From a virus, in IMG/VR virus record IMGVR_UViG_3300023174_000074, positions 32,001 through 96,000 of that record: a DNA stretch of 64,000 bases. One strand, 5' to 3'. A program made the translations under genes and the position numbers. A model generated the notes under the pieces. The model ran no database searches. It saw nothing but the letters and a program-made list of their open reading frames with translations, and was not told where the DNA came from. The first letter of the stretch is position 1; each line of letters starts with the position of its first letter. This document shows positions 4,616 through 60,036 of the stretch, one piece after another.

Positions 4616-4995
4616 GGGTCATCAAGGTATTGATTGGCAGAGTTCGTTCTTTGAGATGCAGGCAGAGTTAGTATCGGAAACTCTTAAATAACCTATACGA
4701 AGCTTTAAACGGCAAAAAATCAGTTTGGGACGTTATCAACGCGTTTGGTACACCCGTAGCTGAGGTTGAGTTAGCTTACGCTGCATAACCTCCGGAGTCT
4801 CACTTACTCCGTTTAAAAAAATGTGAACACATTACTTCTTAGTGTCAGAAGCAAAATATCATTCAGTTAGTTGAAGAAAAGGAACTGCGTTAACCCAATC
4901 TTATATTTTGTAGAATTAGAAAATTTTACTAAGCCTGTGAATGAGTCCTTTGACTATCTGAGCAAGACGGGGGTTCAATTCCTCCATGATCCACC
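4616..4995 (+). ncRNA. ssrA: tmRNA
   Basis: acceptor stem GGGTCAT/ATGATCC with G3.U wobble, discriminator A then CC; T-arm GGGGG-TTCAATT-CCTCC; tag ORF 4711-4788 GKKSVWDVINAFGTPVAEVELAYAA*. Confidence 0.92.
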
Positions 4996-5002
4996 GACGC
5001 GA

Positions 5003-20153: not shown

Positions 20154-20189
20154 GCTCACCGAGGATAAATAGTAGTAAAAAAAACGTTA

Positions 20190-20771
20190 ATGAAAAAATT
20201 AATATTACTATTATTACCGACCTTAGTATTTGGTCAGAAACTTAGAGAGTCGGTTAAGGTAAAAACACCGATATATGAAGTAATATATAATGAAAAATTA
20301 GAGCAGCCAACTTGGATCAAGTACACGGTTCAATGCCCGGCAGGAACAGCTTCTAGAACAGGTATTGACTTTTACACCAATGATTCTATTAAAACTTCAG
20401 ATGCAGCTGATTACGTGAATAATGTCTATGATAAAGGCCATTTAGCTCCAGCAGCTGATTTTAATTGCACCAAAGAGCTTTTATATCAAACTTTTAGCTA
20501 CTTAAACTGCGCTTTACAGAATCAATACCTAAATAGAGGAGTATGGAGAATGCTAGAAGAACATGAAAGAGAATTGGCTAAGACTGAAAAGGTTACTGTT
20601 ACTATAACCCTTGTTTTTGATAAAAAATCGATCTTATTGCCATCAGGAGCCACTGTACCTAGTGGATTTTATAAAACAATCCACTTAAAAAAGTCTAAAA
20701 AGACGATAAAGTATTATTTTCCTAATGAGGCCCCGGTTAAGTCTAAATACACCGAATACATAATTAAATAA
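20190..20771 (+). CDS. secreted DNA/RNA non-specific endonuclease (NucA/EndA family)
   Basis: signal peptide; YDKGHLAPAAD, LNRGVWRMLEE. Confidence 0.88.
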   Translation: MKKLILLLLPTLVFGQKLRESVKVKTPIYEVIYNEKLEQPTWIKYTVQCPAGTASRTGIDFYTNDSIKTSDAADYVNNVYDKGHLAPAADFNCTKELLYQTFSYLNCALQNQYLNRGVWRMLEEHERELAKTEKVTVTITLVFDKKSILLPSGATVPSGFYKTIHLKKSKKTIKYYFPNEAPVKSKYTEYIIK

Positions 20772-24872: not shown

Positions 24873-24963
24873 TAACGGTGGCGATTGGCGAAGTAAAAGC
24901 CTTGCACTACCGTTGATGTTCAGCACTACACTTGATGGCTTTTATTTTGCCAATTGCGTGTTA
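24873..24963 (-). repeat. orphan attC-like site A
   Basis: TAAC-GGTG-GCGATTGGCGAAGTAAAAGCC...GGCTTTTATTTTGCCAATTGC-GT-GTTA. Confidence 0.8.
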
Positions 24964-25015
24964 GCGGTTCGGGCTTCTCCGCTTTTAGAAGTCCAAAATT
25001 TAATAACAAAAAAAA

Positions 25016-25246
25016 ATGAAAAGAGAATTTAATGTTTACAAAAGTTGGTTCGCTGGATTTAGAGCAAAAGATTTGTTTCCAATATTCAGTTTTACCAAAA
25101 ATGTTCAAGGCTGGTTTTTTACTCGTGTATGGTCATTGAATTGGTTTACTTACGCTTTGTCGTTTAGTTTGACAAAAACAAGCGATTTGAACGAAGATAG
25201 AAGTTTGTCACACGAGAAAAATGTCAAACGGTATATGCTGTCTTAG
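25016..25246 (+). CDS. cassette-encoded hypothetical protein
   Basis: inside GTTAGCGGTTCGGGC...GCCTGACCGCTAAC. Confidence 0.6.
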   Translation: MKREFNVYKSWFAGFRAKDLFPIFSFTKNVQGWFFTRVWSLNWFTYALSFSLTKTSDLNEDRSLSHEKNVKRYMLS

Positions 25247-25255
25247 CCTGACCGC

Positions 25256-25304
25256 TAACGGATTGCAGCTATGCGCTCGTTTTAATGGCGCATAGGTGCT
25301 GTTA
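25256..25304 (-). repeat. orphan attC-like site B
   Basis: TAAC-GGATT-GCAGCTATGCGC...GCGCATAGGTGC-T-GTTA. Confidence 0.8.
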
Positions 25305-25339
25305 TGTGATGTGCTTTTATTAACCGAAAATAAATTATT

Positions 25340-31888: not shown

Positions 31889-32374
31889 ATGGAAAATAAT
31901 GTAAATCAAAATAAAACGGAAATGGATATTTTAACCTTTCACCCAATTAAAAAGTCGGATCTTGGATTTCATGGAAATCTTTTTGGTGGGCAACTATTAA
32001 AATGGATTGATGCAGCTGCGGCTGGATATTCTATGCAATTATGTGATACCCCAAGAATGGTCACTATACTTATCGATAAGTGCTATTTCGAAAAACCTGC
32101 TAAGGAGGGACAATTGGTTAAGATCTATGGAATACCTACTGATATAGGCCACACATCAATAACATTATACATTGAGGCAAGAGCACATAATGTTTACACA
32201 GGTAAGCAGGTAGTAGTACTTAAGACTCATATAAAATTTGTTCATATAGACGAGGAGGGAAATCCAATACCTATTGGGGAGAAGGGTAGAAACTCCGTCG
32301 GTAGAATGATAGAGGCAAACAAAGAATTTATAGAAAACATAAAACAAAATAAACCATCAAGAACCACAAAATAG
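31889..32374 (+). CDS. acyl-CoA thioesterase (HotDog)
   Basis: HGNLFGGQLLKWID, FVHIDEEG. Confidence 0.85.
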   Translation: MENNVNQNKTEMDILTFHPIKKSDLGFHGNLFGGQLLKWIDAAAAGYSMQLCDTPRMVTILIDKCYFEKPAKEGQLVKIYGIPTDIGHTSITLYIEARAHNVYTGKQVVVLKTHIKFVHIDEEGNPIPIGEKGRNSVGRMIEANKEFIENIKQNKPSRTTK

Positions 32375-49816: not shown

Positions 49817-51258
49817 GTAAAGTTAAAAAAAAACCAATAATAGATTTAGAATCTCTTAACACGGATCAGAAGACAGCTTTTGAAGATTTAAGGGATTTCG
49901 TTTGTGATAAGGGAGATGATAGCGTCTATGTGCTAAAAGGTTGGGCAGGAACAGGAAAGACCTATTGTGTGAGTGTGCTTGTCAGATATGTGCTCGAGGT
50001 GATACACCCGACACATAATTGGTATAGAATAGCAGTTACAGGACCAACCAATAAATCAGTGAGGGTTATTAAAAAAACCAGCGGGCTGAAAAATCCTAGG
50101 GTTTCGTTTCAAACCATTCATAAAATGCTTGGTCTAACCGAAAGGATAACCAAAGAAGGTGTACAGGAATTTGTTAATCAAGGGGATTTCCAACCAAAGA
50201 TAAAGACGGTAAAGCTACTTATTATCGACGAGGTTTCGATGCTGAATGATGATCTGTTTCAAGAAGTATTAAAATACAGAGACAAGATAAAAATTATCTG
50301 CATGGGAGATCCTGCACAGATTCCCCCTGTAGGTAAACCCGATTGTATTCCTTTTAGAGAAGAGCTTGCTGCAGGCTATAGAATTAAAACTCTTAGTCTA
50401 AAACAGATCATGCGTCAGAAGAAAGATAATGCTATTATCGAATCATCTGTGGCTATTAGATCTGAATTAGGTAGAGCTAAAAATCCAGTTGAACCCGTTA
50501 CAAAGCTAAATGAGAAAGGTGAAGGAATAGAATTTCTTAATCTCAATATTCCTGAGACAAGAAAAGGATTCTCAGAAATACTGAGACGATATTTTGTCAC
50601 CGATGAATTTAAAAAAGATTCTGAGTATGCAAAGATCATTGCATGGAGAAATAAAACTGTTGCAACCATGAATGATGTTATTCGTAAAGTTATCTACGGA
50701 GACGAAGCATTAGGATCAAAGATATTGGTTGGGGAAAAACTAATCGCAAACAATCCGATCATTCAAGGTGAGTCAATAGTTCTGAACACCAACGACGAAT
50801 TCAGTGTGGATAGTTTTACTATCGGTAGCGATGATCTTAGATATCACATATCAGATCAACCCGATGCCGAACCATTTCCAATAACACTAAAGTATTATGA
50901 AACTGTTGTTAGCTATCTTGATGATGAGGATGAAACGGTAAGGGTTAACATACAAATTCTACACGAGGACAGCGAGATGGATTTTAAAAAGCTGGCTAAT
51001 ATTCTAAAGCTTAGAGCTATAGAAAAGAAAGGCAAAGATAAAAGCTGGATAGTGTACTACAACTTTCTTAGAAAGTATGCTGATGTGAATTATGCTTATT
51101 GCACTAGCGCACACAAATCACAGGGAAGCACATACAATACAACATTTGTTCTGGAGGATGACATAAATCAAAATTTTAATATAATTGAAAAAAATAGAAT
51201 ACTTTATACCTCCTATACTAGAGCCAGTAGAAAGCTGTATGTACTTAGAAGATTTTAG
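49813..51258 (+). CDS. dda: Dda-like SF1B DNA helicase
   Basis: GWAGTGKT, IIDEVSM, GDPAQIPPV, HKSQGSTY, YTSYTRA. Confidence 0.9.
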   Translation: MSKVKKKPIIDLESLNTDQKTAFEDLRDFVCDKGDDSVYVLKGWAGTGKTYCVSVLVRYVLEVIHPTHNWYRIAVTGPTNKSVRVIKKTSGLKNPRVSFQTIHKMLGLTERITKEGVQEFVNQGDFQPKIKTVKLLIIDEVSMLNDDLFQEVLKYRDKIKIICMGDPAQIPPVGKPDCIPFREELAAGYRIKTLSLKQIMRQKKDNAIIESSVAIRSELGRAKNPVEPVTKLNEKGEGIEFLNLNIPETRKGFSEILRRYFVTDEFKKDSEYAKIIAWRNKTVATMNDVIRKVIYGDEALGSKILVGEKLIANNPIIQGESIVLNTNDEFSVDSFTIGSDDLRYHISDQPDAEPFPITLKYYETVVSYLDDEDETVRVNIQILHEDSEMDFKKLANILKLRAIEKKGKDKSWIVYYNFLRKYADVNYAYCTSAHKSQGSTYNTTFVLEDDINQNFNIIEKNRILYTSYTRASRKLYVLRRF

Positions 51259-52424
51259 AATCTACCCAAACTCCATCCGTCACTAATATATTTATCGATT
51301 TCTTGCACATCAACCCTAACTGATTTTTTTGATTTATTTATCCATTTTTTACCCCTTGATGAATTTCCCATGCCTTTTCGACTTTCGTCAGTGATATTTA
51401 ACTTATCTTTATCAACGATTCTTCCCAAACACCATCCCTGACATATCCATTTTTCTAGTTGGTCAGCCTTAACCTTTTTATTTTTATCAAAGCAATTATT
51501 TATCCAGATGGTATTTTTATGAACATTGCTCATTTTTAATTTAGCATCCGTTGATCTTTTCATCCCCTTACTTACGTGTCTCAATTCTCCAGATTCCAAT
51601 CTAGGATCATCTATTTTAACCCTCATTCCGTTACCGCTAACATCTTTAACTGGTATTGTTCCCTTAGTAACACCCTGTAATTCACCGGATATAAATCGAG
51701 GATCATTTCGATCCAATATTAAATTTTTGCCTCCATCCTTAACAACTACTTTATGTGTAAATTTATGAATTAGCTCACCACTTTTTAATCTTGGATCGTC
51801 GGTTTTTATTCTTATGTTATTACCATTTTTATCATTTACACATACTGTTCCTTTTATTATACCTGTCATTTTTTCATTTTTGAATTCGTCCTTATTAACA
51901 TAACGAATAATTCCATTTTTATCCCTTCCTACAGCATTGTTACAATGTATACTTTTTAGATCACCATTAAGATAATTAGGATCATCGGTTGAAACCTGTT
52001 GGGTCTTTCCCTCCCCGTCCTTAACAGTAACATATCCTGTTGATATAAATATTAATTCTCCGCTTAAGTACTCTGGATTATTAACTGAGGTCTGAAACGT
52101 ATCCCCTTTTTTATTTCTAACCGTGACAACTCCACAGCTTCCCCCTCCACCACCACCTAAAGTGATATTATATACATTTTCATTTAATATAAATTCGTTA
52201 CTTACTAGTTCTTTTTCTTTTTCTAACATTTTATTTCTACTATCAAAATCATACAATATAATTTTTTTAAATTTCTCTATTCCGTATTTTTTAATAGCTA
52301 GTTTAATTAATTTACCTGATCCCATATAGTTATCATTAATATTATATGTGGAATGACACCCAATATAGATTTTACTATTTACTAGATTTAATATTAAATA
52401 AATCAGATGATGTTTTTTCGCCAT
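51255..52424 (-). CDS. GIY-YIG homing endonuclease (Seg-like) with repeated DDPR..SGEL units
   Basis: LIYLILN...IYIGCHST...YMGSG. Confidence 0.85.
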   Translation of the reverse strand: MAKKHHLIYLILNLVNSKIYIGCHSTYNINDNYMGSGKLIKLAIKKYGIEKFKKIILYDFDSRNKMLEKEKELVSNEFILNENVYNITLGGGGGGSCGVVTVRNKKGDTFQTSVNNPEYLSGELIFISTGYVTVKDGEGKTQQVSTDDPNYLNGDLKSIHCNNAVGRDKNGIIRYVNKDEFKNEKMTGIIKGTVCVNDKNGNNIRIKTDDPRLKSGELIHKFTHKVVVKDGGKNLILDRNDPRFISGELQGVTKGTIPVKDVSGNGMRVKIDDPRLESGELRHVSKGMKRSTDAKLKMSNVHKNTIWINNCFDKNKKVKADQLEKWICQGWCLGRIVDKDKLNITDESRKGMGNSSRGKKWINKSKKSVRVDVQEIDKYISDGWSLGRF

Positions 52425-52456
52425 TTTGTTAGTTTATATATATATATATATCTAAC

Positions 52457-52521
52457 TATAGAATCGAATATACAGCCTACACCAGGCGAGTAAGAAAGTT
52501 TACGTCATGAGAAGATTCTAG
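52457..52521 (+). pseudogene. displaced duplicate of dda 3' end
   Basis: YRIEYTAYTR-(1-nt deletion)-SKKVYVMRRF* versus NRILYTSYTRASRKLYVLRRF*. Confidence 0.75.
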
Positions 52522-53312
52522 TAGCTTTCTCTGATACGGATAAACTTGCAGTCAAGAAATTCCTCGATAGCCTTTTGTCTTAGTCTATCCTTTTCTTTTA
52601 ATTCGTCATTTATATAGTGGTATTTTTCGTCCCATTCATAAACTGTGTTATTTTCTTTATCATATCCATCTACCCAATATCCAAGTTCTTTAACGTGAAA
52701 TTCACACCCGTTTTCTGCGTGTTGAATTCTAATCCCGGTTTCTTCCATTAGCTTATTAAAGTACTCGCAGCCTTTTTTGCTATATGGAGGATGGAATTTT
52801 TTATCGATTGCTTTAAGCTTATCAATAAAAATTACTCTTAGCTTTTTCCTAGTCTCCTCGTTATGGTGTTTCCCGAATTTAGTATCTCTTAATGAATTTT
52901 CCCAATTAGTTCTATGCTCATCACTCATCTTCTTTCCTTTATTCCATGGCGTGCTTGATCCCCATTCGGTATCTTTAATCCCATTCTTCCAATTGCTCTT
53001 ATATTCTTCACTCATTGGCTTACCCTTATTCCAAGGTTCATATCCTTCCTTGTGTACATAAGCCCAGCCCACAGCATTTGGTTGAACTTTCTTGCTGCAG
53101 CTTTTACCGCAATGTTCTCTGTATCCCTTAGCTATATTATTAAATGAAGCTTCCCTATCACACTGCTTGCATTTTATCTTCTCCCCATTTAAAACGTATT
53201 GATCATAATAATCCTTGGTATCTATTTTATGGTTCTGTTTTATGTGACTTCCGAATCCGTTATTTGACTTTGTTTCGAATCCGCATATCTTACATTTCTT
53301 GATATCTTCCAT
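52518..53312 (-). CDS. homing endonuclease-like protein (Zn finger, NUMOD3, PD-(D/E)XK/Vsr-like nuclease)
   Basis: CKIC..H..H, PWNKGK repeats, HAENG.E...YWVDGYD...YEWDEKYH. Confidence 0.78.
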   Translation of the reverse strand: MEDIKKCKICGFETKSNNGFGSHIKQNHKIDTKDYYDQYVLNGEKIKCKQCDREASFNNIAKGYREHCGKSCSKKVQPNAVGWAYVHKEGYEPWNKGKPMSEEYKSNWKNGIKDTEWGSSTPWNKGKKMSDEHRTNWENSLRDTKFGKHHNEETRKKLRVIFIDKLKAIDKKFHPPYSKKGCEYFNKLMEETGIRIQHAENGCEFHVKELGYWVDGYDKENNTVYEWDEKYHYINDELKEKDRLRQKAIEEFLDCKFIRIRESY

Positions 53313-53580: not shown

Positions 53581-53667
53581 TAACGGTTGGGTATATGTGA
53601 AGTACCTTACCACAAAACTTAAAAATTAAATAGAAACTTTAGGAGGTATTTCACATATACCTTGTTA
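53581..53667 (-). repeat. attC-like site 1
   Basis: TAAC-GGTTG-GGTATATGTGAAGTACCT...AGGTATTTCACATATACC-TT-GTTA. Confidence 0.85.
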
Positions 53668-53682
53668 TAACTCGTTTTAATT

Positions 53683-53925
53683 ATGACTCGATTTGAAAGA
53701 AAAAACAGAACTGAAATAGTTTATAAAGGATTCGGTGGTATTACCGATGCTTTTGACGATATGTATAAACAACTTTGGAGAATAAATGATGAAGAATATA
53801 ATTATTTATGTGAAACACTTACTGATGAAGAATTGAGTGATATTACGCCAGAATTTAAAACTATATCTCAAATAAAAAAAGCGATAACAATAGTAAATAC
53901 GGCTCTTTCTAAAAATGAGTTATAA
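53683..53925 (+). CDS. cassette 1 hypothetical protein
   Basis: stop is the TAA of next TAAC. Confidence 0.7.
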   Translation: MTRFERKNRTEIVYKGFGGITDAFDDMYKQLWRINDEEYNYLCETLTDEELSDITPEFKTISQIKKAITIVNTALSKNEL

Positions 53926-54011
53926 CGGTTGAGTGTATGTGTAGGTTTTTTGAAATTAAACTTTAATATATACTAAAAACTAAATAAAAAACTTACATAT
54001 ACACCTTGTTA
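53923..54011 (-). repeat. attC-like site 2
   Basis: TAAC-GGTTG-AGTGTATGTGTAGG...CTTACATATACACC-TT-GTTA. Confidence 0.85.
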
Positions 54012-54065
54012 TGTGCCGTTTTTTCTTATGGACTTCAAATTATTAATTTTTAAAATAAACAAAAT

Positions 54066-55133
54066 ATGAATTTAGCAAGTGTACAAAAAGTAATCAAATT
54101 AACCCCAATTGAGGGTGCAGATTTGATAGAAACAGCAACCGTATTAGGTTGGGAAATTGTAGTAAAAAAAGGCGAATACAAAGTGGGTGACTTATGTAGT
54201 TACATTCAGATTGATACAGTAGTTCCCGAACTACCCGAATATGAATTTTTAAGGGAACGGAAATTTAGAGTAAGAACAATCAAATTGCGTAAACAAATTT
54301 CGCAGGGGCTTGTAGTTCCTTTACCTAATGGTAAATGGAAAGAAGGCGATGATATTACAGAGGTTTTGGGAGTAAAGAAATACGAGAAGCCAGACAATAA
54401 CCCAGAACGCTATGAGAAGCCAAGAATGTCTAAAAAATGGTATAAGAAATGGATTTACTTGTTTAAATATAATTTCCTTTTCAAGTTGTTCCCAAAATTA
54501 CAAAGGTTAAGCCGTTCTCCATTCCCTAAAAATTTGGTATCAATTACCGATGAAGAAAGAATACAAAATATACCACATGTATTACAACAATACGCTGGTA
54601 AATTATTTGTAGTAAGCTATAAACTTGATGGTAGTAGTATTACAATAATTCATTCAAAGGTTTTTGGTAAAAGTAAGTTTAGAATTTGCAGTAGAAGATT
54701 TGAATTGCACGACAAAAAAAATGATTGGTACAAAGTATTTACTGATACTAATTTTAAATATGAAATTGCAAAACTTGTAAAGCACTTTAAAACTGATGAT
54801 ATAATTGTACAAGGCGAAGCAATAGGCAAATTTAACGGCAACCACCACAACTTACAAAAAGAGCAAATTAGGTTGTTTAATATCAATGTAAACGGCAAAA
54901 GATTAAACCAACAGGAATTTATAAAAACTTGTTTGGCAAATAATATTCCACATTGCCCAATGTATAAGGAAATTGTTTTAAATCACTCTTTACCCGAAAT
55001 ATTGGCTTTGTCTGAAATTAAAGACGTGATTAATCCATCAGTAGATGTTGAGGGTTTAGTTTGGCGTTGCGTTGAAGATAATTTAAGTTTCAAAGTGATA
55101 AACAATAAATATCTTCTTAAAAACAATGAGTAA
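54066..55133 (+). CDS. cassette 2: RNA ligase, DRB0094/Rnl5-like
   Basis: LASVQKV..PIEGAD.IE, KLRKQISQGL, TDEERIQN, KLDGSS, EGLVWR, FKVIN. Confidence 0.88.
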   Translation: MNLASVQKVIKLTPIEGADLIETATVLGWEIVVKKGEYKVGDLCSYIQIDTVVPELPEYEFLRERKFRVRTIKLRKQISQGLVVPLPNGKWKEGDDITEVLGVKKYEKPDNNPERYEKPRMSKKWYKKWIYLFKYNFLFKLFPKLQRLSRSPFPKNLVSITDEERIQNIPHVLQQYAGKLFVVSYKLDGSSITIIHSKVFGKSKFRICSRRFELHDKKNDWYKVFTDTNFKYEIAKLVKHFKTDDIIVQGEAIGKFNGNHHNLQKEQIRLFNINVNGKRLNQQEFIKTCLANNIPHCPMYKEIVLNHSLPEILALSEIKDVINPSVDVEGLVWRCVEDNLSFKVINNKYLLKNNE

Positions 55134-55157
55134 CGGGGTGTTTCCTAAAATGGCACA

Positions 55158-55205
55158 TAACGGTTGAGTGTAAAAAATCGTTTTAATGTTTTTTACACTT
55201 TGTTA
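55158..55205 (-). repeat. attC-like site 3
   Basis: TAAC-GGTTG-AGTGTAAAAAA...TTTTTTACACT-TT-GTTA. Confidence 0.85.
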
Positions 55206-55233
55206 TAAGTATGTAAAACAAAAATTATACAAT

Positions 55234-55401
55234 ATGAAAGAAAAAATTGAAAATAGGTTAAAAGAGTTATATGATGAATACAAACATGTAACTGATAAAG
55301 ATAGAGTTTGGATTAAACAAACAGGTGGTTTAACAAGAAGAGAACGAATTGAAAAATGTAAAATTCTAATAGAAGAGTTAGAAACATTATTAAATTCATA
55401 A
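55234..55401 (+). CDS. cassette 3 hypothetical protein
   Basis: ORF within about 27-bp complementary cassette ends. Confidence 0.6.
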   Translation: MKEKIENRLKELYDEYKHVTDKDRVWIKQTGGLTRRERIEKCKILIEELETLLNS

Positions 55402-55419
55402 TTTTTGTTTTATTACTTA

Positions 55420-55536
55420 TAACGGTCACAGATATATGTAGTTGTTTAACACAAAACTTAAATAATATGAATAAAGATAAAAATTTAGAACAAAACTTGG
55501 ATAAGAGTAATAAAAAATTACATATATCTGATGTTA
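55420..55536 (-). repeat. attC-like site 4
   Basis: TAAC-GGTCA-CAGATATATGTAG...TTACATATATCTG-AT-GTTA. Confidence 0.85.
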
Positions 55537-55739
55537 GTTGTAGTATTGATGATATTAAAAAATGGGTTGATAGTGAAATTGGTTACTATGACGAATGTGA
55601 TACTGTTGAAGATGCGATTGATGATATGTTACATGATTTCAAAACACATTTTTTAAATATTGATTACACAAAGAAATTTGATAAGGAAAACGAACTTATA
55701 AAATACTTCAAAAGTGAGTGGGAACAATATTACAACTAA
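55467..55739 (+). CDS. cassette 4 hypothetical protein
   Basis: starts in hairpin loop (LHISDVS), stops at TAAC. Confidence 0.7.
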   Translation: MNKDKNLEQNLDKSNKKLHISDVSCSIDDIKKWVDSEIGYYDECDTVEDAIDDMLHDFKTHFLNIDYTKKFDKENELIKYFKSEWEQYYN

Positions 55740-55862
55740 CGGTTTGCAGATAGGCGAAGGCAAGGATTTAGAAAACAAAAATTTAACTTTAAAATAGAAT
55801 TTAATATGAAAAAGAAATCATCATTTTACCACAACACCCTTGCTTTTGCTTATGTGCTGTTA
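55737..55862 (-). repeat. attC-like site 5
   Basis: TAAC-GGTTT-GCAGATAGGCGAAGGCAAGG...CCTTGCTTTTGCTTATGTGC-T-GTTA. Confidence 0.85.
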
Positions 55863-55991
55863 GTTGCAGTTTTTTTGTGGGTGGCAATTTCAAGCACCAT
55901 TCAAAGGTTCAAATGTGCTAAACTTACTGAAACAGAAATATTTATTAGAATACCAAAGTCTTTTGTGTGCGATTGGGCAAATTGCAACTAA
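55806..55991 (+). CDS. cassette 5 small membrane protein
   Basis: TM helix; starts in loop, stops at TAAC. Confidence 0.65.
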   Translation: MKKKSSFYHNTLAFAYVLLVAVFLWVAISSTIQRFKCAKLTETEIFIRIPKSFVCDWANCN

Positions 55992-56113
55992 CGGTTGATG
56001 CTTGGTGCAGTTGCGAAATTGAACGATAAACTTAATTAAAAAACGGAAACATGAATTGGATTAAAAATATTTTTAGAAAACGGAAACAAGCAATTGCATC
56101 CAAGCATTTGTTA
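55989..56113 (-). repeat. attC-like site 6
   Basis: TAAC-GGTT-GATGCTTGGTGCAGTTGC...GCAATTGCATCCAAGCATT-T-GTTA. Confidence 0.85.
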
Positions 56114-56311
56114 GCGGCTGGGCTGGAGTTTAGACGAACATCTCTTGGTCAAGCTGCATTTATTCCGAAAGGCACAACAAGTAATTATGCTGATAAAATA
56201 ATGTTCCCCGACAATTGGAGTAGAGCAGAATTTAGAGCAATGGCAGATTACATGGATGCGTTTCCTGACTGCACATTATTTTCAGATGGAAGTGGTAAGC
56301 CTTGCCGCTAA
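56051..56311 (+). CDS. cassette 6 hypothetical protein
   Basis: starts in loop, stops at TAAC. Confidence 0.65.
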   Translation: MNWIKNIFRKRKQAIASKHLLAAGLEFRRTSLGQAAFIPKGTTSNYADKIMFPDNWSRAEFRAMADYMDAFPDCTLFSDGSGKPCR

Positions 56312-56433
56312 CGGTTGGGTATAAATGAAGTGCCGATTTTGAAAAACAAATGTTCAATTAAAAACAAAAGATAAAATGGAAAACAAAAGTTCAATTACAG
56401 ACGAAAGTAAGGCATTGCAACAAGCCGATGTTA
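56309..56433 (-). repeat. attC-like site 7 (poorly paired arms)
   Basis: TAAC-GGTTGG...GTGCC...GGCATTGCAACAAGCCG-AT-GTTA. Confidence 0.7.
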
Positions 56434-56621
56434 GCAGCAGTGCGAGGTATATAATTGTTGATGAAAGCGTTTCAGCACATTGTTGTTTTGAATGCACAAT
56501 AATTGATACCGCAGCAGGTAAAGAAGCTTATGGTGATTACTGGAAGCGTTCAATGTGCGAAACATTCGACAGGGCAGAAGCTGAAATTATATGTGATGCG
56601 CTCAATAAGCATTTCTGCTAA
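56376..56621 (+). CDS. cassette 7 hypothetical protein
   Basis: ALQQADVS arm-encoded motif; SAHCCFE...ICDALN. Confidence 0.7.
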   Translation: MENKSSITDESKALQQADVSSSARYIIVDESVSAHCCFECTIIDTAAGKEAYGDYWKRSMCETFDRAEAEIICDALNKHFC

Positions 56622-56706
56622 CGATTTCGGGCTTGGCGAAGTGCCGCTACTCGAAACTTGAATTTTAGCACTAACTGTCCTGCGGCATTTTGCCAAACCC
56701 GTGTTA
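56619..56706 (-). repeat. attC-like site 8
   Basis: TAAC-GATTT-CGGGCTTGGCGAAGTGCCGC...GCGGCATTTTGCCAAACCCG-T-GTTA. Confidence 0.85.
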
Positions 56707-56754
56707 TGGGATAGTTTTAAAAACCTTTTAGGGTGGGCATTTAAAAACGAAATA

Positions 56755-57213
56755 ATGATAATAGCGATTGATTTTGATGGAACTTGCGTAACACACGAAT
56801 TTCCAAAAGTGGGCAAAGACATTGGTGCTGTGCCTGTATTAAAAGAGTTGGTTAAAAATAACCACCAATTAGTTTTGTTTACAATGCGAAGCGACATAGT
56901 TAATCCAACGGGAGAGGACAATGAATTGCACCTTGAAAGCGGAAACTATTTAACTGATGCAATTGATTGGTTTAAACAAAACGAAATACCACTTTACGGA
57001 ATACAAACCAACCCGATACAGCACACTTGGACTACAAGCCCGAAAGCATACGCACAACTTTACATTGATGATGCTGCTTTAGGATGCCCACTTTTGGTTG
57101 ACATTGTAAAAGATGGTGACGAAAGTATTAAGCAAGTTGGCAGACCTTATGTTAATTGGGAAAAGGTAAAAGAAATGCTAATTGATAAAGGGATTATTGA
57201 TGATGAAGACTAA
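56755..57213 (+). CDS. cassette 8: HAD-superfamily hydrolase (BT0820-like)
   Basis: IAIDFDGT, LFTMR, SPKAYAQLYIDD. Confidence 0.82.
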   Translation: MIIAIDFDGTCVTHEFPKVGKDIGAVPVLKELVKNNHQLVLFTMRSDIVNPTGEDNELHLESGNYLTDAIDWFKQNEIPLYGIQTNPIQHTWTTSPKAYAQLYIDDAALGCPLLVDIVKDGDESIKQVGRPYVNWEKVKEMLIDKGIIDDED

Positions 57214-57248
57214 CCCGTGCGGTGGGAAAAGGTTTTTAAAATTTCCCA

Positions 57249-57375
57249 TAACGTTTTGCAGCTATGCCCAGTTGGGCAATTTTAAAGACAAAATAATCAA
57301 CTTAAAATAAAGTAAATATGGAACACGAAAATATTAACAAACAAGAAGATGCCCAATTGGGTATAGGTGGTGTTA
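57249..57375 (-). repeat. attC-like site 9
   Basis: TAAC-GTTTTG-CAGCTATGCCCAGTTGGGCA...TGCCCAATTGGGTATAGGTG-GT-GTTA. Confidence 0.85.
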
Positions 57376-57530
57376 GCATCAGTGCCTTAACGGAATGGCT
57401 TAAAAGCGAATCTGTTTATACAGCATTGAGGTACGCATCAAAGAACCCATCAAATAGCGGTATGGATAATTGTGAAGATAAAAGTTATTTACATCTATAC
57501 AATTTAATTTGTCAGATTCGTAGGCATTGA
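57318..57530 (+). CDS. cassette 9 hypothetical protein
   Basis: starts in loop (QLGIGGVS). Confidence 0.65.
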   Translation: MEHENINKQEDAQLGIGGVSISALTEWLKSESVYTALRYASKNPSNSGMDNCEDKSYLHLYNLICQIRRH

Positions 57531-57533
57531 TGC

Positions 57534-57613
57534 TAACGGTTGCGGATATGAGAAGGGAAAAAATACCAATGAAAAATAAACAAGAATTTTTTACTTTCTT
57601 ATATCCGTTGTTA
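57534..57613 (-). repeat. attC-like site 10
   Basis: TAAC-GGTTG-CGGATATGAGAAGG...CTTTCTTATATCCG-TT-GTTA. Confidence 0.85.
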
Positions 57614-57679
57614 TCGGTCTGGTTTGGTTTCAATTTTTGTGCTGAGGGTTTAGAATTTCATCATTAAATAAATATACAA

Positions 57680-57943
57680 ATGGAAAACAATAATTGCATA
57701 GTAGAGAAAAAATTTCTGTTCTGGAAATGGAAAGCGGTGGAGCATCATTACAAGATGCACCGAATAAGTAAATTCATGGATTGCTCAACATCATTCCATG
57801 TTGATTGGGTATGTAAGTGCGGGGCAAGGTGGGAACAGAAATTTGTTGAACAGGACGAATTATTGTTGAAAGGAATATCAACTGAAATTCTAAATAAGAT
57901 TGACGGTTGGCATTCGCACTACTGCGGGAAGGAAAAAAATTGA
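57680..57943 (+). CDS. cassette 10 hypothetical protein
   Basis: ORF within complementary cassette ends. Confidence 0.65.
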   Translation: MENNNCIVEKKFLFWKWKAVEHHYKMHRISKFMDCSTSFHVDWVCKCGARWEQKFVEQDELLLKGISTEILNKIDGWHSHYCGKEKN

Positions 57944-57958
57944 AACCAAACTTGCCGA

Positions 57959-58084
57959 TAACGTTCCAAGTATTGCCGATGGTGGGGCATTACACCACCA
58001 AAGTTCAATTAACAAACTAAAGTTCAAAATATGCACACAGATTCAAAAAAGCACGAAACCCCCACTATTGGCAATACTTTGTTA
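57959..58084 (-). repeat. attC-like site 11
   Basis: TAAC-GTTCC-AAGTATTGCCGATGGTGGGG...CCCCACTATTGGCAATACTT-T-GTTA. Confidence 0.85.
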
Positions 58085-58321
58085 TATGCTGTTAAAAATG
58101 GGCAGTTGAAAAGGTGGTTTTACGAGTTTAAACACGGACACCCATTTCTACTTGACGAAGAAGCTACTATAATTGTTTCTACAAGATTAAGTGATAAAAG
58201 TGCTTCTTGGATGAATGATGAACAGATTAAAGAACTCGTAAAACTTAGAGTGAAAGCAATGTATAAAAAGAAATTTCCAAATGCAAAACGGTGGTCGTTG
58301 CCCATTTTTAATTGCATATAA
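58031..58321 (+). CDS. cassette 11 hypothetical protein
   Basis: starts in loop, stops at TAAC. Confidence 0.65.
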   Translation: MHTDSKKHETPTIGNTLLYAVKNGQLKRWFYEFKHGHPFLLDEEATIIVSTRLSDKSASWMNDEQIKELVKLRVKAMYKKKFPNAKRWSLPIFNCI

Positions 58322-58445
58322 CGGTTGAGGATTTATTTAGTTGCGAATAAAAAATTACAAAATATGATAACAGAAGAACAGTTGAAAAAAGCAGAAAAAG
58401 TTATTGCTGACTACAAAGCCGAGCAATTGAATAAATCCTATGTTA
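58319..58445 (-). repeat. attC-like site 12
   Basis: TAAC-GGTTG-AGGATTTATTTAGTTGC...GCAATTGAATAAATCCT-AT-GTTA. Confidence 0.85.
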
Positions 58446-58600
58446 TAAAATCGTTTCCGAGCGATGATGAAATACATAAGGAATCGTTGAGGGTGTGCAG
58501 GATAGAGGCAGAGTTTGTGCAAGGGGTAGCGTGGTGCTATCACGATAAAGGAGCAAAATGGATGATGGAAGAACTAAAGAAGCGAGGAAATGTTTTATAA
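58364..58600 (+). CDS. cassette 12 hypothetical protein
   Basis: starts in loop, stops at TAAC. Confidence 0.65.
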   Translation: MITEEQLKKAEKVIADYKAEQLNKSYVIKSFPSDDEIHKESLRVCRIEAEFVQGVAWCYHDKGAKWMMEELKKRGNVL

Positions 58601-58686
58601 CGGTTTTGGTGTATGAGAAGGTTTGCTTAGATAAATTTTCAAATTACAACTGAACTTAACAGCAAACTTTCTTATACACCTTGTTA
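58598..58686 (-). repeat. attC-like site 13
   Basis: TAAC-GGTTTT-GGTGTATGAGAAGGTTTGCT...AGCAAACTTTCTTATACACC-TT-GTTA. Confidence 0.85.
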
Positions 58687-58750: not shown

Positions 58751-59128
58751 ATGAAAAATTATTTATTGACAGATTTTAATACTGAAAGATGGAAAGGTAT
58801 TAATATAGAAAGTGCAGAAACACAAGTAGAAAAATTGAATGAAAAAATTAATAAAATTGGATGTTTATTTGGTGAAATAGGGAATCCAGAAACATTTGAG
58901 ATTTCGTTATCAAGAGCATCACATTCAATTAAAAATTTAACTTTTGTAGATGGTAAAGTTTATGGTGATGTTGAATTTTTGAATAATGATAACGGAAAAC
59001 AAGCAGACAATTTTATTAATAATATGAATTGTATATTTGGAATAAGAAGCACAGGAACATCAGAACAATATAAAGATGGTGAAATAGTTATCCATTCAAT
59101 TTTTACTTGGGATGTAATCAATGACTAA
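58751..59128 (+). CDS. cassette 13: T4 gp21-like prohead protease homolog, catalytic motifs altered
   Basis: FGEIGNP...LSRASHSI...G.VEFLN...GK...FGIRSTG. Confidence 0.6.
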   Translation: MKNYLLTDFNTERWKGINIESAETQVEKLNEKINKIGCLFGEIGNPETFEISLSRASHSIKNLTFVDGKVYGDVEFLNNDNGKQADNFINNMNCIFGIRSTGTSEQYKDGEIVIHSIFTWDVIND

Positions 59129-59174: not shown

Positions 59175-59205
59175 AGCATTGTGTATAACTATTATATATA
59201 AGTAA
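59175..59205 (-). other. putative attI-like site (crossover core TAAC 59186-59189)
   Basis: last cassette end GCATTGTGTATAAC not followed by a hairpin, 16 bp before integrase. Confidence 0.6.
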
Positions 59206-60036
59206 GTGTACCATAAACCATTTAATATCAACACTTTGAATCAAAAAATTATAAAGATTTGTGAGGAAAAGTTTATATATTTAAACTACTCACCAAGAAC
59301 AAAAGACAATTATATGTGTCATATTAAAGATTTTCTTAATACTCTTAATGACAAACAGATAATTCATTGTAGTTCCAAAGATTTTCAATCATATCTAGAT
59401 AATTATCAATTCACCTCTGTTTCTCAACAAAACCAGGTTATTAACGCTATTAGATTTCTGTATAAGTACGGACTTGATAAGAAATACGATAAGGTATCGT
59501 TTAAAAGACCAAAATCGGAAAAGAAGCTACCCAGAGTTATTGATGGTGAATTTATAAAAGAAAAACTAAACAAGATTGGTAATCTGAAACACAAAGCAAT
59601 CTTAACACTAACCTATTCAGTTGGATTAAGGGTGTCTGAAATAGTTAATCTAAAGATTGAAGATATTGACTCAAAAAGGATGCTTATACACATCAAAAAC
59701 GCAAAAGGCAGAAAGGATAGGATAGTTCCGCTGTCATTAACTGTTTTAACTTTGCTAAGAGAATATTTTAAAGAGTATAAACCTTCAGATTATCTTTTTA
59801 ATGGGCAAAATTCTTCATTGTATTCAATACGAAGCTGTCAGCAAATTTATAAAAAATACATTGATGACGGGTCATCAATACATACACTAAGGCATTCCTC
59901 TTTCACCAACCTATTAGAATCAGGAACTGATCTAAGGATTATTCAAAAAATAGCAGGTCATTCCAGCTCTAAAACAACAGAAATTTACACACACGTCTCA
60001 AATAGTCTTTTAAGTAGGATAAAACTTCCAATTTAA
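59206..60036 (+). CDS. tyrosine recombinase/integrase (IntI-related, no IntI-specific insertion)
   Basis: YSPRTKDNY SAM-like N-terminus; GLRVSE, KGRKDR, HTLRHS, AGH, TTEIYTH. Confidence 0.92.
   Translation: MYHKPFNINTLNQKIIKICEEKFIYLNYSPRTKDNYMCHIKDFLNTLNDKQIIHCSSKDFQSYLDNYQFTSVSQQNQVINAIRFLYKYGLDKKYDKVSFKRPKSEKKLPRVIDGEFIKEKLNKIGNLKHKAILTLTYSVGLRVSEIVNLKIEDIDSKRMLIHIKNAKGRKDRIVPLSLTVLTLLREYFKEYKPSDYLFNGQNSSLYSIRSCQQIYKKYIDDGSSIHTLRHSSFTNLLESGTDLRIIQKIAGHSSSKTTEIYTHVSNSLLSRIKLPI

Follow-up and report, generated by a model that had tools for sequence, protein, structure and literature searches.

Hairpin sites and a recombinase gene in the window

The window, that is, the whole stretch of DNA analysed here, spans 64,000 nt and corresponds to positions 32,001 to 96,000 of the IMG/VR record IMGVR_UViG_3300023174_000074. 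Between 53581 and 58686, it contains 13 hairpin sites of uniform polarity on the + strand, exactly where a previous sequence-only reading had placed them, and two further hairpin sites lie outside this array, at 24873-25304. Each site consists of TAAC, a left spacer of 4-6 nt opposite 1-3 nt, a stem of 11-22 bp, and GTTA (lengths in a Watson-Crick-only register). The left spacer is as previously described, including the frequent GGTTG (exact in 5 of the 13 sites and present as the beginning in 7), whereas the right spacer, given as 1-2 nt, reaches 3 nt at sites 2 and 7, and the stems, given as 11-20 bp, extend to 22 cells. The 5.1 kb array holds 13 matches to the motif TAACG.T[TC]; in the remaining 59 kb of the window, there are 3 on + and 2 on -. 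The array is followed by a hairpin-less site and a gene for a tyrosine recombinase. The features are listed below; array sites start at TAAC and end at GTTA, and folding energies (kcal/mol) were obtained with DNA parameters and compared with 200 shuffles per site.

24873..24963, + strand: remote site 1, of the array-type build, with three G·T cells; -14.9 on + vs -10.4 on -; hairpin at the head of ORF 25016-25246
25256..25304, + strand: remote site 2, short class, directly 3' of ORF 25016-25246; -13.2 on + vs -9.8 on - (25256-25306)
53581..53667, + strand: site 1, 87 nt; left spacer GGTTG vs TT; stem of about 18-20 bp; -13.1 on + (z -3.42) vs -11.8 on -; hairpin at the head of a cassette carrying ORF 53683-53925
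53923..54011, + strand: site 2, 89 nt; -9.9 on + vs -8.8 on -; TAA of TAAC is the stop codon of ORF 53683-53925; cassette with an RNA-ligase gene, ORF 54066-55133
55158..55205, + strand: site 3, minimal 48-nt class; stem 11-13 bp; -7.9 on + vs -7.8 on -
55420..55536, + strand: site 4, 117 nt; -7.9 on + vs -6.12 on -, not better than shuffles; loop contains the ATG of ORF 55467-55739
55737..55862, + strand: site 5, 126 nt, the example chosen in the sequence-only reading; three G·T cells; -11.6 on + vs -6.7 on -; TAA of TAAC is the stop codon of ORF 55467-55739; loop contains the ATG of ORF 55806-55991
55989..56113, + strand: site 6, 125 nt; one extra base in the 3' arm; -12.02 on + vs -10.77 on -; loop contains the ATG of ORF 56051-56311
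56309..56433, + strand: site 7, correct ends (TAACGGTTGG ... GTTA), mismatched arms
56619..56706, + strand: site 8, 88 nt; -16.37 on + vs -17.4 on -; cassette with ORF 56701-57213 (phrog_1238)
57249..57375, + strand: site 9, 127 nt; -16.9 on + vs -10.5 on -; loop contains the ATG of ORF 57318-57530
57534..57613, + strand: site 10, 80 nt; -12.9 on + (z -4.09) vs -7.8 on -
57959..58084, + strand: site 11, 126 nt; -15.3 on + vs -12.3 on -; loop contains the ATG of ORF 58031-58321
58319..58445, + strand: site 12, 127 nt; -8.3 on + vs -7.55 on -; TAA of TAAC is the stop codon of ORF 58031-58321
58598..58686, + strand: site 13, 89 nt; -13.8 on + (z -4.03) vs -11.8 on -; final cassette of the array, with ORF 58751-59128
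59178..59205, + strand: array-terminal attI-like site without a hairpin; ATTnnnTATAAC arm, then a TAT-rich half
59206..60036, + strand: Xer-like tyrosine recombinase, 276 aa; start codon uncertain

The + strand was predicted to fold better than its complement, and indeed, it has the lower energy at 12 of the 13 array sites and at both remote sites, site 8 being the sole array site with a better fold on the - strand. Likewise, the arm mismatches were said to be mostly G opposite T, and among the 15 window sites we counted 23 G·T, 2 T·G, 3 A·C, 1 C·A, and 23 other cells, 18 of the latter coming from site 6, with its one-base bulge, and the degenerate site 7. Long loops keep sites 4, 5, 6, and 12 from outperforming shuffles in total free energy (32-42 of 200 fold equally well); the stems themselves are plain. 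At site 7, the site hairpin forms on neither strand, and 130 of 200 shuffles fold equally well or better; given that its arms do not match, this is a degenerate or hybrid site.

The recombinase scores 145 bits against TIGR02249 (cut-off 265) and 176 against NF040815 (cut-off 220). The IntI-specific I2 insertion is absent: there are 31 residues where VchIntIA (PDB 2a3v) has 79. The TAAC of the attI-like site lies at 59186-59189. In 41 of 45 loci, a similar site precedes the recombinase match by 17-88 nt, the match in locus L070 looking like chance. Among the viral loci with at least 2 kb of upstream sequence, 49 of 53 have at least two sites on the strand of the recombinase gene and no more than 6 kb upstream of it, and site density is 0.80 per kb upstream of the gene vs 0.05 per kb downstream.

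Anatomy, covariation, and strand bias of the sites

For comparison, 80 related phage contigs yielded 297 unique sites in a strand-neutral, Watson-Crick-only search in which the ungapped register was at least 75% Watson-Crick. The 5' arm exceeds the 3' arm by 3 nt in 167 sites and by 4 nt in 103 (together, 270 of the 297), with the opposite sign in 5, bearing out the previously noted departure from classical attC architecture in the form of a one-sided 5'-arm bulge and an ungapped stem. When wobble pairs are allowed, the site reduces to TAACG facing TGTTA, a pure bulge of 3-4 nt located directly after TAACG with no unpaired base opposite (G·T pairing allowed), and a covarying stem whose G·T pairs occupy fixed positions. 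In an alignment of 36 sites that belong to the 80-89 nt classes, 5 of them from the window and 31 from other loci, G·T is the pair following TAAC in 34 sites, the first stem pair in 32, and two inner stem pairs in 22 and 34, respectively. The 20-bp stem in this alignment is 97.5% paired, with compensatory changes on both sides in 16 of the 20 pairs; none of 500 shuffles reached these pairing and covariation values, and the pairing falls to 35-54% when the partner is shifted by 1-3 columns. The hairpin is followed by a T-rich stretch on its 3' side. The T of the inner ATT motif is opposite G in 235 of 270 sites, and that of the outer one in 216 of 296. Whereas the sequence-only reading singled out the bulge as the recognition determinant, the direct ATTnnnTATA copies and the fixed-position G·T pairs are conserved at least as much. 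The 48-nt class also shows strong conservation across loci.

The non-Watson-Crick stem cells in the 297 sites are distributed unevenly: G·T (416) and T·G (74) add up to 490, vs 27 for A·C (5) and C·A (22), the cells that would form wobbles on the - strand. The + strand is the more stable one in 272 of the 297 sites and the less stable one in 21, with a tie in 4; mean energies are -13.57 kcal/mol for the + strand and -11.49 for the - strand. Within the 48-nt class, the difference nearly vanishes (-8.24 vs -8.06 kcal/mol), the + strand folding better in 21 of 32 sites. This strand bias is genuine and under selection rather than noise. Better folding of the recombined strand is already a property of classical attC, the bottom strands of which are 2.12 kcal/mol more stable across 263 sites (PMC5027507).

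Cassette borders and shared cassettes

Blocks common to otherwise unrelated arrays extend from one TAAC to the following TAAC(G); their borders are sharp to about 4-5 nt, and the sequence that adjoins them on the left is unrelated. Such blocks are shared by loci L002 and L071 (100% identity, 315 nt), by L027 and L062 (97.6%, 422 nt), and by the window and L051, which have in common the whole site 11 cassette, TAAC to TAAC (83% over 372 nt, 57958-58326). One cassette is located mid-array in L004 and is terminal in L021, where it adjoins the hairpin-less attI-like site. In L027, a close relative, the flanks are 85-95% identical to the window up to 51257 and again from 59178, the beginning of the attI-like site, but none of the array sequence of the window is present; array content is, thus, hypervariable. 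In lake and freshwater contigs from other studies, the point of divergence from the window is immediately 5' of the TAAC at sites 1, 2, and 8; contigs of runs X3, X4, and X6 diverge before 53923 (site 2) and a contig of run X7 before 56619 (site 8).

The 9 nt directly 3' of each hairpin provide a further link between the two ends of a cassette. Of the 1184 cells at the variable positions 2-5, 953 are paired when matched to the 3' end of the same cassette; for the upstream neighbor, the count is 384 of 1184, close to the shuffled value (386 ± 16, maximum 447 in 1000 shuffles). This complementarity of a cassette with its own end points to a circular cassette.

A proposed mechanism

Taken together, these observations make it fairly probable that the array is a phage-borne integron-like cassette system, in which the folded + strand would be the substrate, cut within TAAC. 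The cassette unit would comprise a hairpin followed by its gene. Folding of the + strand, here the coding one, would turn two direct ATTnnnTATA copies, one at the cassette 3' end, running into TAAC, and the other in the 3' arm of the stem, into the inverted arms of an Xer-type core site, with a short central region between them and the 3-4 nt bulge directly 3' of TAAC(G). The adjacent Xer-like recombinase would then cut and exchange a single strand within TAAC, either with a second folded site, resulting in excision, or with the hairpin-less site beside its own gene, resulting in insertion, and replication would complete the junction. In the complementary strand, the bulge would move to the other arm and C·A mismatches would replace the four fixed G·T pairs, so that, in this proposal, the bulge and the fixed pairs make only the + strand a good substrate and, hence, fix the orientation of the cassette.

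The anatomy of the sites and its conservation, the covariation, the strand bias, the borders of the cassettes, and the association with the recombinase are demonstrated by the sequences; the single-stranded substrate, the exact bond cleaved, the replicative resolution, and the role of the bulge are what we infer from these patterns. The previous suggestion that the sites are single-stranded hairpin substrates fits the covariation, the TAAC borders, and the complementarity of the flank to the own 3' end, and that interpretation as a whole is partly supported. There is precedent for the chemistry in that Xer recombinases exchange one strand pair between the folded single-stranded DNA of the CTX phage and a duplex (PMC3442271). 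Several observations count against the proposed reading. The gain of I2 is described as having moved integron integrases from double-stranded to single-stranded recombination (PMC7790495), and this insertion is absent from the phage recombinase; the mismatched arms of site 7 are not producible by crossovers in TAAC; and the strands are nearly equal in the 48-nt class, with site 8 preferring the - strand.

Alternative explanations

The sites could, instead, recombine as duplexes, with both strands exchanged, in which case the flank arm, a spacer of about 8-9 bp, and the left stem arm would form a two-armed Xer core, the hairpin being incidental or serving some other purpose. Such a scheme accords with the plain Xer type of the recombinase, which lacks the IntI insertion, and with the inverted near-copy of the arm motif that the left stem arm would hold about 8-9 bp from the TAAC arm; a TAAC crossover is expected equally. 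We nevertheless regard it as unlikely: the covariation spans 20 bp, far past an 11-nt arm, the inverted copy would lose the motif at the fixed G·T positions, where the + strand copy retains it, a duplex core site does not require pairing of the 9 nt after the hairpin with the own 3' end, and the wobble excess of 490 to 27 would be meaningless in duplex DNA. Still, it weighs against our own reading that, in duplex DNA, the left half-site, taken as an ordinary core site, would yield an identical crossover point.

The stem-loops might also be RNA or transcription signals, either terminators with promoters or translation-start elements, between which genes are shuffled by homologous recombination of repeats, so that the G·T excess would represent G·U pairs in mRNA. 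The folded strand in the phages is, after all, the mRNA strand, the start codon of the next gene lies inside the loop at 7 of the 13 window sites, and the stem-loops known as PeSLs are described as composite terminator and promoter motifs that mediate modular shuffling in T4-like phages (PMC4122927). We consider it improbable, however, that such signals account for the array, given that borders sharp to about 4-5 nt are unlike homologous recombination, that the array is coupled to the recombinase gene in 49 of 53 loci, and that the own-end complementarity points to a circular cassette. A scan for sigma-70 promoters and terminators, which is blind to long-loop hairpins and Bacteroidota promoters, revealed no excess (18 promoter-like matches vs 28.8 expected, 5 terminator-like vs 3.0). 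In eight bacterial loci, whose recombinases are 42-50% identical, the genes lie opposite the bulge strand in 13 of 14 intervals and the wobble cells still favor the bulge strand, 32 vs 8, in what is a small control (22 sites, 40 wobble cells). Wobble, then, tracks recombination polarity rather than mRNA, although an RNA role could add to the bias in the phages, whose hairpins fold on the mRNA strand and are followed by a T-rich stretch.

That the - strand is recombined, as in the classical reading with its non-coding strand and extra bases on the 3' arm of the fold, is very improbable: the 3-5 unpaired bases on that arm do recall the extrahelical bases of classical bottom strands (PMC5027507), and the genes are located on the + strand, but it is the - strand that folds more weakly in 272 of 297 sites, and its four fixed positions hold C·A mismatches, a cut in its 5' arm, as deduced from the chemistry of the tyrosine recombinase family, would place the crossover at the right-hand GTTA whereas the actual cassette units run from one left TAAC to the next, and it is with the + strand folded that the recombinase gene has the location and orientation seen in the classical integron.

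Relation to known systems

These sites are close to integron attC, for which class 1 attCaadA7 and the Vibrio cholerae VCR with VchIntIA served as our references. Like attC, they are imperfect palindromes of variable length with an invariant AAC...GTT at the base, outer and inner boxes separated by an unpaired region, a crossover within the AAC of the folded strand, at its 5' base, and an outer box completed by the other end of the cassette itself; the proposed recombined strand folds better by 2.08 kcal/mol, vs 2.12 in the classical sites (PMC5027507). As in integrons, the terminal insertion site adjoins the recombinase gene, which is itself on the folded strand and points away from the array, and array content is hypervariable. 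The phage enzyme, unlike IntI, has no I2 insertion; the phage stem has G·T pairs at fixed positions and no extrahelical bases, of which classical attC has 2-3 near L'', and its central unpaired region is one-sided, with 3-4 nt on the 5' arm, compared to 5-6 nt per arm in the classical spacer (PMC5027507). Because the phage genes are on the folded strand, the hairpin precedes its gene and often holds the start codon, unlike attC.

The CTX phage employs the host XerC and XerD, and its whole genome is integrated at dif once; in the system described here, a single phage-encoded recombinase would serve arrays of many small cassettes. The pdif sites are duplex sites of 28 bp that are used by the host XerC/XerD and are not known to have hairpins or to form arrays beside a dedicated recombinase. 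CTX attP(+) likewise involves an Xer-type enzyme without I2, exchange of one strand pair, and a folded single strand joined to a duplex, as proposed here, with replication thought to complete the exchange (PMC3442271), and in the pdif modules of Acinetobacter plasmids, Xer-type sites bound genes that are thought to be mobile as modules (PMC7399989). PeSLs of T4-type phages, similarly, are stem-loops that separate small accessory genes within the hyperplastic regions of large lytic phages and serve as points of gene gain, loss, and exchange (PMC4122927, PMC2839356); that exchange, however, reportedly occurs by homologous recombination, with no dedicated recombinase, whereas the phage sites have 4-nt-core borders and a recombinase gene at the end of the array. 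The CALINs of virulent phages are integrase-less clusters of attC-type sites, some of which are found in marine Bacteroidota phages, such as Polaribacter phage P12002L; the classical attC model was used to find them and IntI1 to test them, and the section 3.4 text of that study mentions no phage-encoded Xer-like recombinase, bulge, or wobble pattern (PMC9892861). Some overlap with the phages of that study is possible.

Our literature search found no description of a phage cassette system with such sites. Unlike in integrons, the carrier here is a phage, and it is a lake-water phage, in which small genes are kept as exchangeable cassettes.

The hairpin array and its genomic setting

The 126,808-bp contig (34% G+C) of which bases 32001-96000 form the window looks like that of a large phage, and the phage-type genes in the window encode a Dda-like helicase, two RNA ligases, GIY-YIG and NUMOD3 endonuclease-like proteins, and a tmRNA. 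Near-identical DNA is present in lake and freshwater metagenome runs. The helicase names no host, given that it has no cultured relatives above about 30% identity. At Rfam gathering thresholds, the window contains a single tmRNA and no match at the hairpin sites. The tmRNA gene (4616-4996) is full-length, scores 48.1 bits on RF00023 against a gathering score of 47, and goes uncalled by ARAGORN, which finds no tRNA in the window.

The non-canonical hairpin sites described in the sequence-only reading are confirmed as an array of 13 sites of a single polarity, each running from TAAC through a left spacer and a stem to GTTA; the array and its surroundings contain the following features.

Features in and around the array
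51255-52424, - strand, GIY-YIG/SegE-like gene between the helicase gene and the array
52518-53312, - strand, NUMOD3-bearing gene between the helicase gene and the array
53581-58686, array of 13 hairpin sites
54066-55133, + strand, RNA ligase with a PHA02142 OB-fold domain, cassette cargo
56701-57213, + strand, PHROG-family protein annotated as phosphoheptose isomerase, cassette cargo
59206-60036, tyrosine recombinase of 276 aa, Pfam PF00589 and PF13495

The pattern TAACG.T[TC] occurs 13 times in the 5.1-kb array, against 3 (+ strand) and 2 (- strand) occurrences in the remaining window. Two further sites of the same build, at 24873-25304, lie on either side of one ORF (25016-25246, 76 aa). The array is 28 kb away, no recombinase is close by, and the pair looks like a secondary cassette insertion. 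In a register set by Watson-Crick pairs only, the left spacers of the window sites span 4-6 nt, as had been claimed, and the right spacers 1-3 nt rather than 1-2; the stems begin at 11 cells, as claimed, and reach 22 rather than 20. The non-Watson-Crick stem cells include 23 G·T and 2 T·G, against 3 A·C and 1 C·A. Folding of both strands with DNA energy parameters favours the + strand at 12 of the 13 array sites, site 8 being the exception, and at both remote sites. Three findings weigh against the described pattern: the two strands of site 3 (48 nt) are nearly equal in energy, the long-loop sites 4, 5, 6, and 12 have total folding energies no better than those of shuffled sequences, and site 7 (56309-56433) yields no hairpin on folding. 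The ends of site 7 are proper but its arms are unpaired, the left one resembling site 1 (65% over 48 nt) and the right one the long-loop class; it is a hybrid or decayed site, of a kind that crossovers in TAAC cannot make.

All ORFs of the array are on the + strand, and apart from the two listed above, they mostly belong to no family. The upstream ORF stops at the TAA of TAAC in 7 of the 13 cases, and at 7 of the 13, the start codon of the downstream ORF lies within the hairpin loop. This start-in-loop class (sites 4, 5, 6, 7, 9, 11, and 12; 55420-58445) consists of sites of roughly 117-127 nt, so that the N-terminus of the protein is partly encoded by the 3' arm of the stem; at the shorter sites, the reading frame opens 3' of the hairpin.

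A recombinase without the IntI-specific insertion

The recombinase beside the array falls below the curated cut-offs for integron integrases, with 145.3 bits, in two stretches, against 265 for TIGR02249 and 93.7 against 435 for NF011946. Its best NCBIfam match is NF040815, the XerA type (176 bits, cut-off 220), and its best solved relative is Pyrococcus abyssi XerA (4a8e, E 7.6e-33). Aligned with VchIntIA (2a3v), residues 188-218 of the phage protein stand opposite chain residues 181-259, that is, 31 residues opposite 79, so that about 48 are missing and the IntI-specific insertion (the I2 helix region) is absent. Judged from these alignments, in which the catalytic residues can be read, the protein appears to be a simple two-domain Xer-type recombinase. 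Because it scores below the IntI cut-offs, tools that require an IntI-type integrase will not call complete integrons here.

Sites in related phages

In a collection of viral contigs, we detected 216 relatives of the recombinase, the best 80 of which, 59-96% identical, were used. Among the 53 loci with at least 2 kb of upstream sequence, 49 carry at least two sites within 6 kb upstream of the recombinase gene and on its strand, and site density is 0.80 per kb upstream against 0.05 per kb downstream. The sites fall into length classes of 48, about 79, about 88, and about 125 nt. The 48-nt minimal class hardly varies in sequence from one unrelated cassette or phage to the next (62 unique copies with flanks) and recurs at many places in loci L002-L075, for example, at 55-102 and 583-630 of L004. 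In one phage locus, L026, seven or more further sites form a second array (18274-20606); it is on the strand of the recombinase gene and lies about 7.5 kb past that gene in the downstream direction.

For a strand-neutral count, the register was set by Watson-Crick pairs only, ungapped and with at least 75% Watson-Crick pairing over 12-18 positions, and the longer arm was allowed on either side. The proposed asymmetry of 3-4 nt holds in 270 of the 297 unique sites, where the 5' arm is longer by 3 nt (167 sites) or 4 nt (103 sites); the opposite sign occurs in 5. Since such a register can be found without gaps, the stem has no regular extra (extrahelical) bases. The non-Watson-Crick cells comprise 416 G·T and 74 T·G against 5 A·C and 22 C·A, of which only the last two types would form wobbles in the complementary strand. 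The better folding of the + strand, likewise part of the sequence-only reading, extends to the whole set: the + strand is more stable in 272 of the 297 sites, equal in 4, and worse in 21, with mean energies of -13.57 (+) and -11.49 (-) kcal/mol, a difference of 2.08. The 48-nt class is close to neutral (-8.24 against -8.06 kcal/mol; + better in 21 of 32). An earlier wobble count (665 + 210 against 6 + 27) was dropped as biased because its site finder accepted G·T but not A·C, and so was a very loose second finder, whose 2043 candidates were mostly noise.

Fine anatomy of the sites

For the finer structure, 36 sites in the 80-89 nt classes were aligned, of which the window contributes 5 and other loci the remaining 31. 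TAAC and GTTA are present in all 36, as the site search required. The helix at the base of the fold consists of TAACG paired with TGTTA, the final pair being G·T in 34 of 36, and is followed on the 5' arm by a pure bulge (3 nt in 35 of the aligned sites, 4 nt in the other). The 20-bp stem beyond the bulge is 97.5% paired, with compensatory (two-sided) changes at 16 of the 20 pairs; none of 500 shuffles matches the observed pairing or covariation, and sliding the partner by 1-3 columns lowers the pairing to 35-54%. At three stem pairs, G·T occupies a fixed place (32/36, 22/36, and 34/36 sites).

Position profiles of 381 unique sites resolve one motif in two direct copies, which folding turns into inverted arms: the first, ATTgcntATAAC, ends in TAAC, and the second, ATTtynTATA, occupies positions -19 to -10, counted from the GTTA end, on the 3' side of the stem. 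The middle T of ATT is opposite G in 235 of 270 sites for the inner copy and in 216 of 296 for the outer one, so the wobbles are position-specific rather than scattered decay. On the model of Xer sites, we read the site as two arms, each probably about 11 nt long, around some 6 paired positions and the bulge. A T-rich stretch lies 3' of the hairpins: among the eight positions from +8 to +15 after GTTA, five (+8, +9, +11, +14, and +15) carry T in 181-230 of the 381 sites. Given this stretch, the full hairpin could also terminate transcripts coming from upstream.

Cassette borders and the position of the crossover

The borders of the mobile unit emerge from blocks that are common to otherwise unrelated arrays. 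Each such block starts at TAAC and ends at the next TAAC(G), the sequence outside being unrelated.

Blocks common to pairs of recombinase loci
L002 and L071, 315 nt, 100% identity
L027 and L062, 422 nt, 97.6% identity
Window and L051, 372 nt, 83% identity

The downstream hairpin differs in each case; hence, the cassette unit is a hairpin together with the gene that follows it. One cassette is followed by another hairpin in L004 and, in L021, by a hairpin-less terminal site beside the recombinase; L021 and L052 present the same pattern. The terminal site consists of ATTnnnTATAAC followed by a TAT-rich half, without a hairpin. Of 45 loci, 41 have a conserved site of this hairpin-less kind, with its TAAC, upstream of the recombinase, although one of these matches is chance-like; the copy in the window is at 59178-59205.

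The clearest result on the crossover position, independent of the comparison of common blocks, comes from the ends of the cassettes. The 9 nt after a hairpin are complementary to the cassette's own 3' end, the 10 nt before the next TAAC, and not to the end of its upstream neighbour, which comes just before the hairpin in the array: at variable positions 2-5, pairing with the own end is seen in 953 of 1184 cells and pairing with the neighbour's end in 384 of 1184, shuffled pairings giving 386 ± 16 with a maximum of 447 in 1000. It follows that an outer helix of about 14 bp is complete only in the circularised cassette and that everything to the left of TAAC belongs to the previous cassette. The description of the outer helix as poorly paired (53.8%) is, by the same test, true of the array context only. 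In classical integron cassettes, the core and inverse core sites stand in the same relation. Judged from these borders and from the own-end pairing, the crossover lies somewhere within the TAAC at the 5' base of the putative folded strand.

Array variants conform to these borders. In the close relative L027, the flanks are 85-95% identical to those of the window as far as 51257, where the helicase gene ends, and from 59178 onwards, and the arrays have nothing in common; because the homology ends at 51257, the two endonuclease-like genes (51255-53312) are apparently absent from L027. Contigs from other studies diverge from the window precisely in front of TAAC at site 2 (metagenome runs X3, X4, and X6), site 8 (X7), and site 1 (X3), and an X3 contig diverges 2-3 nt before the terminal TAAC. 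Only contig ends exactly at TAAC were counted as variants. Joints between contigs were left out, since their shorter side spans 20-33 letters at 90% likeness and such joints often derive from repeats, as were runs containing only small shares of the sequence words; array stretches that these runs do not cover carry no weight either way. A contig end at the right-hand end of a hairpin shows no more than that hairpin types are common to different cassettes. A DNA search of a phage collection with the whole array recovered no related array, own-genome records possibly lying outside the search, and only short gene-level matches (the phosphoheptose-isomerase-like gene and an RNA ligase).

The nearest phage analogue of these arrays is the PeSLs, stem-loops of T4-type phages that, according to PMC4122927, work via homologous recombination. 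The hairpins could, in the same manner, be terminators combined with early promoters, between which genes are shuffled by homologous exchange. Sigma-70 promoter-like and terminator-like matches are not in excess, in a scan unsuited to long loops and to Bacteroidota promoters; the borders here are sharp to 4-5 nt, which argues against homologous exchange.

The folded strand: DNA or RNA

For site-specific recombination of folded sites, the crossover and the wobble bias point to the same strand. From the chemistry of the family, a recombinase bound at the base of the fold would cut the 5' arm; together with a crossover at the left TAAC, this would make the + strand the recombined one, in agreement with the wobble bias. 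With the + strand folded, the array, the terminal site, and a recombinase gene that lies on that strand and points away from the array match the classical integron layout, and only the cassette genes are turned round.

In the phages, the folded strand is also the mRNA strand, so that G·U pairing in RNA could explain the wobble bias. Bacterial relatives separate the two, within a small sample of 8 loci with at least two sites. The bacterial recombinases, 42-50% identical, also lack the insertion and score about 211-225 bits on NF040815, and their arrays, built of the same kind of site, follow the recombinase gene on its downstream side.

Bacterial recombinase ORFs with arrays downstream
L129, 7134-8810
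L133, 7776-8819
L136, 7674-8831

Such loci occur, for example, in Flavobacterium saccharophilum, in Arundinibacter roseus, and, outside Bacteroidota, on a Desulfitobacterium chromosome. The bacterial recombinases are in longer ORFs, of 347-558 aa when counted from the first start codon. The order in the bacterial arrays is gene then site, and the genes are opposite to the bulge strand, in 13 of 14 intervals, but the wobbles are still on the bulge strand (32 against 8). In this small sample, the wobble bias tracks the polarity of recombination, not transcription. The sequence-only reading is thus partly supported: comparison of sequences lends good support to the proposal that the sites are folded + strand substrates, whereas the asymmetric bulge is a hypothetical recognition determinant.

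Comparison with integrons and Xer systems

Like the phage sites, integron attC sites are imperfect inverted repeats with an AAC...GTT core and covarying arms, and the integron crossover, too, is in the AAC triplet, with the outer box completed by the cassette's own other end. In both systems, the recombined strand folds better (in the phages, the presumed one does so in 272 of 297 sites, the mean difference being 2.08 kcal/mol). For classical attC, PMC5027507, in the portion pertinent here, gives an advantage of 2.12 kcal/mol for the bottom strand, so a stronger fold of the recombined strand is a classical trait; it also describes an unpaired spacer of 5-6 nt per arm and 2-3 extrahelical bases near L''. 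The phage sites have neither a spacer on each arm nor extrahelical bases but a one-sided bulge of 3-4 nt in the 5' arm, as well as fixed-position G·T wobbles that classical attC sites lack. Whereas IntI has the I2 helix region, the phage recombinase lacks the insertion and scores below the IntI family. An integron cassette consists of a gene followed by attC and is read from a promoter at the attI end; the phage cassette consists of a hairpin followed by a gene that reads towards the recombinase. The terminal TAAC site is the putative counterpart of attI, which lies beside the integrase gene and takes new cassettes. What sets the phage system apart from the classical one is the one-sided bulge, the absence of extrahelical bases, the wobbles at fixed positions, an enzyme that lacks the insertion, and the orientation of the genes.

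In the prevailing view of integrons, recombination of folded sites depends on extrahelical bases that are read by the I2 helix of IntI. Activity without I2 is possible in principle given that Xer recombinases act on folded single-stranded CTX phage DNA by exchanging a single pair of strands (PMC3442271). In a dif-like Xer core, a centre of 6-8 bp is flanked by inverted arms of about 11 bp each, whereas the phage arms become inverted only in the fold. Virulent phages have been reported to carry attC clusters that lack an integrase and are functional with IntI1, and section 3.4 of the study in question (PMC9892861) describes for them neither an Xer-like enzyme nor the bulge and wobble build. The library of papers searched yielded no account of phage hairpin cassette arrays with an insertion-less Xer-like recombinase.

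Implications

Taken together, these observations suggest, with what we consider an even chance of being correct, that an I2-less Xer-type family in Bacteroidota phages and their hosts performs integron-style recombination of single-stranded hairpins, in which the strand is set by a one-sided bulge of 3-4 nt beside the cleavage point and by G·T pairs at fixed positions, among them the same position of both enzyme-binding arms. Such a system would combine integron-like layout, crossover, own-end complementarity, and strand bias and yet lack extrahelical bases and I2, with the one-sided bulge and the fixed G·T in their place. If this is the case, cassette recombination needs neither extrahelical bases nor I2, and the system either arose independently of integrons or survives from an early stage of integron evolution. 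The phage system would thus offer a direct bench test of the true requirements of single-strand cassette recombination and of the origins of integrons. For large lytic-type phages, the arrays would be a dedicated route for swapping accessory genes, the cargo in the window including an RNA ligase and a homologue of a sugar-phosphate enzyme.
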